A program made the position numbers and the translations under genes. From contig JANJGN010000290.1 in NCBI GenBank assembly GCA_026770705.1, forward strand, positions 248,001 to 312,000: a stretch of DNA of 64,000 bases, given 5' to 3'. Of this stretch, positions 52,304-52,837 are shown one piece after another. Below the pieces are notes generated by a model. It was not told the origin of the DNA, did not search any database, and saw only the letters and a program-made list of their open reading frames with translations. The stretch's first letter is position 1; each line of letters begins with the position of its first letter. This DNA comes from Isurus oxyrinchus. Its lineage: Eukaryota.

Positions 52304-52837
52304 TTATCCCACTCTTATTGTGTCCAGCCTCCTGCTGGGCCGCCGTCTTGCATTTATGCAGCAGCTTTTTATTATTCGGTTCAGCTCTGTTTCTCCCGTC
52401 ACTGGTTCTCCATCCTGTCGATGGTGCTGTCTCATGAACTCTGAGAAGGTAACGCATTCGCTTATTAAAATCACAAGAGAGACGCTCTTTTACTGAAACA
52501 TTTGGTCCCAGACCGAGTGTTTAGTTCACCATCCAGCAGCTCCTGGGAATTACATGCAATACATTTGCTTTCTTTATAAATGCCTGGCTACTGGTTGATA
52601 TGTGCACTCACCGTTGACTGTTTCAATGACCTTTAAGGGTAAAGGCTTCCTCCCGTCTGCTGTAGAAGCTGTGCCCCTGCAGCTTGAGTTCAGAAGGACA
52701 TCACTAGTGAAGAGTGCATGCACCAGGCGGCTTATAACCAGATTTCTCTTTTCTAAATATTTCAGAGTCTCCAATTTTTCCGGTGCAACAAAAAATATTT
52801 GACGATGTTGCACTTTCACTTTCTCTTGCCCAGGTTT
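52304..52837 (-). CDS. Two open exons (52837-52612, 52440-52304) encoding a complete BEN domain
   Basis: Canonical sites ccctaactttcag| ... G|gtgagt and ttaccttctcag|, phase-1 join. Product: KPGQEKVKVQHRQIFFVAPEKLETLKYLEKRNLVISRLVHALFTSDVLLNSSCRGTASTADGRKPLPLKVIETVNEFMRQHHRQDGEPVTGETELNRIIKSCCINARRRPSRRLDTIRVG*. It fits the BEN pattern (RL...LF....L.NS..G...RKPL...; E.E.N.I....C.NARR, as in NACC1). Confidence 0.78.

Follow-up and report, generated by a model that had tools for sequence, protein, structure and literature searches.

BEN domains bind DNA, and two short open exons on the minus strand of a 64,000-nucleotide stretch of Isurus oxyrinchus DNA (hereafter the window) raise the question of whether they belong to a BEN-domain gene of the shark itself and, if not, what they are the remains of. 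The exon pair has the following anatomy:

52612..52837, minus strand: BEN exon A, 226 nt, open, lacking a methionine, with ...CTTTCAG just before it
52441..52611, minus strand: phase-1 intron of 171 nt, GTGAGT...CTTCTCAG, located where host BEN genes likewise have one
52304..52440, minus strand: BEN exon B, open, ending in C.NARR...TAA

When joined, exons A and B provide 120 codons free of stops, with TAA as the last; the open reading frame of at least 100 residues that crosses exon B (52044-52520) lies in a different frame from that of the BEN domain. As exon A has no methionine, the BEN frame requires upstream exons. The same exon pair with the same intron position was recovered in copies on other chromosomes that are ~68-70% identical in DNA, and also in a predicted protein of the basking shark (P0001; XP_078415413.1). 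This recurrence argues that the anatomy of the pair is more than chance, and both the sequence and the diverged copies agree with the original prediction of two minus-strand exons with splice sites, a 171-nt intron and about 120 open codons. RNA contigs over 52000-55300 were uninformative on expression: those of three possible RNA runs leave the exons uncovered, and those of a further run, of uncertain kind, span the intron without a splice joint.

With the exons scanned singly, the BEN profile of Pfam (PF10523) was the only match to exon A (13.8 bits, E 0.071; gathering score 23.2) and exon B had none; P0001, a spliced NCBI prediction of 142 residues that is 53% identical to the query peptide, also stayed below the gathering score (13.4 bits, E 0.09), and a phmmer search with exon A alone found no BEN domain. 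P0001 was the one real relative returned by the representative-protein search, a second candidate (P0002) having been dropped as a low-complexity repeat match. Word-based searches for longer homologous proteins with exon A, P0001 and a piece of the transposase described below returned none, a result of little weight. A profile built from nine rows of the family matched only two sequences in the PDB, both of them NAC1 BEN domains (E 2e-10 and 2.8e-10; positions 7-113), and in the ESM atlas exon A falls next to clusters that contain BEN proteins (0.95; 25% of their members have the domain). A structure was modeled for P0001 with the window exons in the alignment, and this low-confidence model (pLDDT 52) retrieved NACC1, Insv, BEND6 and BANP at ranks 1-9 of Foldseek. 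The top five matches of VIA-align were all BEN domains (Z 10.2 to 7.5, the next being 5.4; rmsd 4.2 over 106 aligned residues for the Z 10.2 match), and a BEND3 structure was also among the first matches over both fold searches. BEN folds are hence the first to be retrieved by the structure prediction that had been proposed as a check on this locus. Judged from the NAC1 profile match, the fold matches and the atlas neighborhood, the window peptide is a BEN domain, as had been read from its motifs, and among solved BEN domains it appears closest to NAC1/NACC1.

We then mapped the surroundings of the exon pair. Here C-numbers denote contigs, of which C1, C2, C3, C6, C7, C10, C11, C15 and C23 are chromosome-scale, and L-numbers denote loci:

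52315..56859, minus strand: relic assigned to the BEN-gene half of a CACTA/EnSpm-type transposon, with 65-71% collinear identity to the C10 and C11 copies
55956..56190 (approximate, inferred), minus strand: exon 1 relic, with a TAG at 56091 in place of the TGG of dispersed copies
55063..55746, plus strand: histone H3 relic with a frameshift, lying as an insertion within the first intron of the element
54139..54891, minus strand: exon 2 relic with a low-complexity and likely coiled-coil part and six in-frame stops
53775..53861, minus strand: exon 3 relic, its bounds inferred from splice-like sites and comparison with C10/C11
52965..53124 (start approximate), minus strand: exon 4 relic with a GC donor
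52230..52309, strand unassigned: piece of a repeat of very high copy number, likely a SINE, with a depth of >300,000 in four runs
51867..51940, minus strand: tRNA-Asp(GTC), part of the duplicated block (20 of 20 near copies) and outside the transposon; absent from dispersed copies

Exon 2 is interrupted by stops at 54787, 54709, 54682, 54598, 54289 and 54262 and is broken in all 16 aligned copies, and exon 4 carries a TGA (52976-52974) three codons ahead of its GC donor; this stop and two of those in exon 2 are common to 20 of 20 near copies. In the window copy no frame was found that stays open between a start codon and the end of the BEN exons. The copy on C17 at 88.41 Mb (L034) differs from the other 15 in that its exon 2 has no in-frame stop and only a 1-nt shift; in the BEN exons and at their splice sites it is broken nonetheless. 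Homology to the 3' part of the element ends at ~52315, at the high-copy repeat fragment. The H3 insertion, which matches the Pfam Histone profile in two frames (E 8.8e-9 and 0.018), is missing from several sister copies, being seen as a gap in alignments with L059, L068, L069, L072 and C10.

Of 42 copies, 4 have retained the two BEN exons and the three splice sites intact. The AG of the second acceptor (52442-52441) is found in four of the 39 duplicated copies, 29 having CGG and six other sequences; the four copies with CAG group as a single clade (support 0.97) nested among CGG copies, and the dispersed copies have CAG. The simplest reading of this nesting is that the acceptor was lost before amplification and then reverted in one clade through CpG decay; the AG in the window is thus likely a reversion from CGG, and it is this that makes the window copy look intact. 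It could instead be proposed that the exons are part of a functioning host BEN gene specific to this lineage, or of an expanding family, within a tRNA/histone cluster, perhaps domesticated from the transposon, with an upstream exon that has escaped detection. The window and three near copies have open BEN exons flanked by canonical splice sites, which would fit this, as would the 142-residue protein predicted in the basking shark and a mild purifying signal in the older duplicated copies (see below). However, the stops shared by all near copies, the want of a methionine in exon A, the uniformly broken exon 2 and the nesting of the few intact copies speak against it, as does the C15 copy, which is likely the counterpart of the basking shark gene (84-94% identity of pieces) and is frameshifted. 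We therefore regard a live gene as very unlikely. On the sequence evidence the window gene is dead, a pseudogene of a transposon BEN gene and not an intact host gene: its upstream exons are broken, and its BEN exons and acceptor are open by chance in a clade of four copies. The initial reading of a hidden intact gene accordingly falls, and so does its placement in a tRNA/histone cluster, for the surroundings are a duplicated block in which a frameshifted H3 relic has been inserted into the element, with no functional cluster.

Elsewhere in the window a histone 3' stem-loop match lies at 33712-33757, barely above threshold, a tRNA-Ile(AAT) at 47733-47808, and old internal duplications of ~2 kb and ~70% identity at 34129-39589 and 61039-62858. 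Orthologous tRNA-like copies in sister blocks are called Phe, Gly or Thr, and because these calls differ some tRNA copies in the blocks are likely decaying.

To what extent has the fragment multiplied? In the 4.98 Gb of genome searched, exon A gave 150 scored matches among 219 candidates, nearly all of them located on small contigs, in the 79-81 Mb region of C20 or at 88 Mb of C17. The duplicated copies have common flanks of at least 40 kb, tRNA-Asp included, and are segmental duplicates; the window fragment has been amplified at least 150-fold, likely as a passenger of large blocks. The C20/C47 blocks contain short tandem repeats that are putative zinc-finger arrays, each duplicated unit contains several BEN-gene relics, and partial copies comprising exons 1-3 lie just past the window at ~66040-68410 (L037) and ~87000 (L120). 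On C116, C138, C53, C64 and C35 near-identical copies lie 0.5-1.3 Mb apart, some of them inverted, which suggests megabase-scale repeat units on these unplaced contigs. A literature search on this shark duplication found nothing. A few diverged copies, with 43-49% protein identity, stand alone on C7, C10, C11, C15, C23, C6 and C2, and homology of these dispersed copies to the window is limited to 52315-56859. Targeted insertion at tRNA genes, as known for Dada-like elements, was considered and rejected, since no sequence of the tRNA block is found in the dispersed copies.

We also asked what selection the copies have experienced. The shortened copies L062, L066 and L067 were excluded from the tests, and the parsimony count also left out three dispersed copies; omega was 0.88 (p 0.32) across 36 of the 42 copies. 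In the following sets the intervals were read from a grid of values. Young copies gave a best omega of 0.8 (0.5-1.5, p 0.56) and older duplicated copies ~0.8 (0.6-0.9, p 0.036), the uncorrected pairwise ratios of the latter being 0.24-0.61; exon B has accumulated 0.85 changes per site versus 1.26 events in the intron. The duplicated copies thus appear to diverge at near-neutral rates, and a spell of function after capture is possible given the signal in older copies, the slowness of exon B and the exon 2 of the C17 copy. For the dispersed copies omega was ~0.7 (0.5-0.9, p 0.027), the shifted frames giving 1.0 and 1.2; that this value persists despite later neutral decay suggests that the BEN gene was under selection while its element was active.

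The nature of that element is read from sister copies, as the window locus, from -20 kb to +50 kb, has no match to a transposase or a terminus. On C23 a transposase relic lies 11 kb upstream of the BEN copy on the opposite strand; relatives of this relic match Transposase_21 of Pfam (E 1.6e-5, 24.7 bits; cut-off 28.6), a transposase relic scores 0.97 in the ESM atlas, and the one PF02992 match in the whole genome falls inside one of these relics. At five of nine close transposase relics (C23, C11, C1 at 236 Mb, C3 and C10 at 161 Mb), parts of the BEN gene lie up to 20 kb upstream in opposite orientation; among the seven relics located through the transposase first, three are so linked. No BEN parts were found near the relics at C1 95 Mb, C7 78 Mb, C24 and C21. 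Distant CACTA-type transposase relics of other families (~28-32% identity) occur at C14:72.21 Mb (L138) and C5:96.81 Mb (L143), neither with a BEN part within 20 kb. The C11 copy, a member of the window's subfamily with a transposase immediately next to it, provides the nearest link to the window copy, and the head-to-head layout is kept in two subfamilies. No viral gene was seen at the linked loci. A separate young retroelement family, by our reading Penelope-like, is represented at C23 ~21.424-21.427 Mb (L073/L074) by an open frame of 849 residues for a reverse transcriptase that ends in a GIY-YIG-like tail; C7 has a copy that is 98% identical to it.

The termini are likewise shared. The terminus on the transposase side is also found next to BEN copies on C7 and C2 that have no transposase, and that on the BEN side recurs on C3, C2, C6, C7 and C23. 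Decayed left ends resembling CCCTACCAGAAAA were seen at six of eight inspected loci and right ends resembling TTTTCTGGTAG at three of seven; in the C3 copy the two ends have an 11-bp perfect inverted match. At six ends the subterminal TGATC/GATGTCA repeats number 2-7 per 300 nt, compared with a background of 0.225, a contrast inflated by the motifs having been picked from the same ends. Full-length, internally deleted and transposase-less copies occur at unrelated sites on C1, C2, C3, C6, C7, C10, C11, C15 and C23, and homology among those on C10, C11, C15, C7, C23, C2 and C6 is confined to the element. We found no intact element in the genome and, the ends being decayed, read no matching pair of target-site duplications with confidence; a TA initially considered as such at the C3 copy was discarded when further ends showed CTA to be part of the terminal repeat.

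Taken together, these observations point to the exons being the 3' end of the broken second gene of an extinct shark transposon of the CACTA/EnSpm type, whose BEN protein likely bound subterminal repeats, and of which an end-less fragment was likely multiplied passively in segmental duplications; we place the probability of this reading at roughly 0.88. The original suggestion of a transposon or viral derivation hence stands for the transposon, on the strength of the linked sister copies, whereas nothing points to a virus. Sister copies have the multi-exon BEN gene head-to-head with a Transposase_21 gene between inverted CCCTACCAGAAAA-like ends. While it was active, the BEN protein may, by analogy with TnpA, have bound the subterminal repeats, helped the transposase to pair the ends and regulated the shared promoter. 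The window copy has lost the transposase and both ends and gained the H3 relic, and its stops upstream of the BEN exons are common to the whole young subfamily; its acceptor probably changed to CGG before amplification, with subsequent CpG deamination to CAG in four copies. Alternatively, the BEN gene may have been non-functional cargo, a captured host gene that did not work as a partner of the transposase. BEN parts are indeed undetected at four of the nine transposase relics, several BEN copies have no transposase and the intron position is common to host genes; yet the selection seen in the dispersed copies and the fixed head-to-head layout in two subfamilies render mere cargo unlikely.

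The likeness to NAC1 raises the further question of how the element relates to the BEN genes of the host. These are separate loci, comprising 12 PF10523 matches in the genome, which we presume to be BEND2-7 and BANP, and three presumed NACC-type genes, named also from the PDB match; the prior statement that the window domain is not BANP, NACC1/2 or BEND2-7 is borne out by the presence of their orthologues at these other loci. The NACC-type genes are BTB-BEN genes with the same exon layout at C8:152.43 Mb (L123), C16:84.88 Mb (L124) and C29:25.85 Mb (L125). Mammals have two NACC genes, and one of the three may be a retained third paralogue. Three exons that we take to be BEND2-like (L047, L048, L052) lie within 120 kb at C18:10.5-10.6 Mb, and L050 (C10:79.49 Mb), another BEN exon whose identity is uncertain, is presumed BEND6-like. 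Read by eye, seven or eight single-domain host BEN exons terminate at the phase-1 intron position of the element or close to it.

One could then suppose that the dispersed copies are duplicates of a host NACC1/2 gene, or that an unrelated element captured NACC exons, with the nearby transposases being coincidental. NAC1 is the sole PDB sequence match and the top fold match, with 32-34% identity in the structural alignment; like the element, it has the C.NARR end and a phase-1 intron after the L..V..AVK helix, and all three NACC genes have their last intron at the same place and phase as the intron of the element. However, the NACC genes have three introns within the BEN domain, two of them inside the part that corresponds to the single exon A, and the element has only the last, along with one extra intron before the domain. 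The host loci include a BTB exon, to which exon 1 of the element bears no resemblance, and the element is broken and multicopy, unlike the host genes; the exon 2 relic has no match in Pfam. In an exon-A tree of 20 sequences, with poorly resolved deep nodes, NACC groups with BEND7 and is not joined to the element, so NACC was dropped as its sister group; in profile scores NACC (24.1, 24.1 and 21.5 bits) is barely ahead of BEND4 (21.6) and BEND7 (17.9). Moreover, repeated head-to-head linkage and common termini are far above chance in a 5-Gb genome. A derivation from NACC duplicates or captured NACC exons is thus largely refuted, and we give it hardly any credence.

An origin in the opposite direction, of NACC from a transposon, is possible, even if unsupported by the tree. 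Prompted by the NAC1 likeness and the common phase-1 intron, we offer the tentative and rather doubtful model that BEN is the usual TnpA-equivalent of CACTA elements in animals, that such elements were once active in early jawed vertebrates, and that NACC1/2 first, and perhaps BEND4, BEND7 and others, which all have this intron, are domesticated partner genes, NACC being such a gene fused to a BTB exon.

As a gene, the window copy is an ordinary pseudogene, and its intact look, from a likely back-mutation, is a caution for reading splice sites in a single copy. As a relic it is of greater weight, for it indicates, from sequence comparisons, that a BEN gene similar to the host's NAC1 was part of a vertebrate transposon; a CACTA element of two genes, one of them a BEN partner, is thereby placed in a vertebrate lineage. 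The NAC1-like domain and the common intron position make the origin of vertebrate BEN factors, by domestication as against host capture, testable by phylogeny, and recognition of transposon ends becomes a plausible original job for BEN domains. In the published literature, including PMC11075544, we found no CACTA element with a BEN gene; Repbase and two key BEN papers lay outside this search.

Among known systems, TnpA of maize En/Spm binds subterminal repeats. According to PMC1636069, En/Spm requires TnpA as a second protein beside its transposase, and animal CACTA-related elements have a CCC core at their ends; other elements have CAC ends with 2-bp duplications (PMC6004678). The TRC elements (SmTRC1 of Schistosoma mansoni, and those of Tribolium and Aedes), as described in PMC1636069, resemble the shark element in their Transposase_21 domain and many internally deleted copies, and in inverted ends that start with CCC (CCCTACCAG... 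in the shark, CCCTAGTAG... in Tribolium). They differ in that TRC makes alternatively spliced products from one unit (PMC1636069), whereas the shark element, which is extinct and from a vertebrate, had a separate multi-exon BEN gene transcribed divergently from the transposase. Maize En/Spm, with TnpD and TnpA, is similar to the shark element in combining a transposase with a second, putative DNA-binding protein and subterminal repeats; in the shark element this second protein would have been a BEN-domain protein encoded by its own gene, with a role that, by analogy, might have been like that of TnpA.
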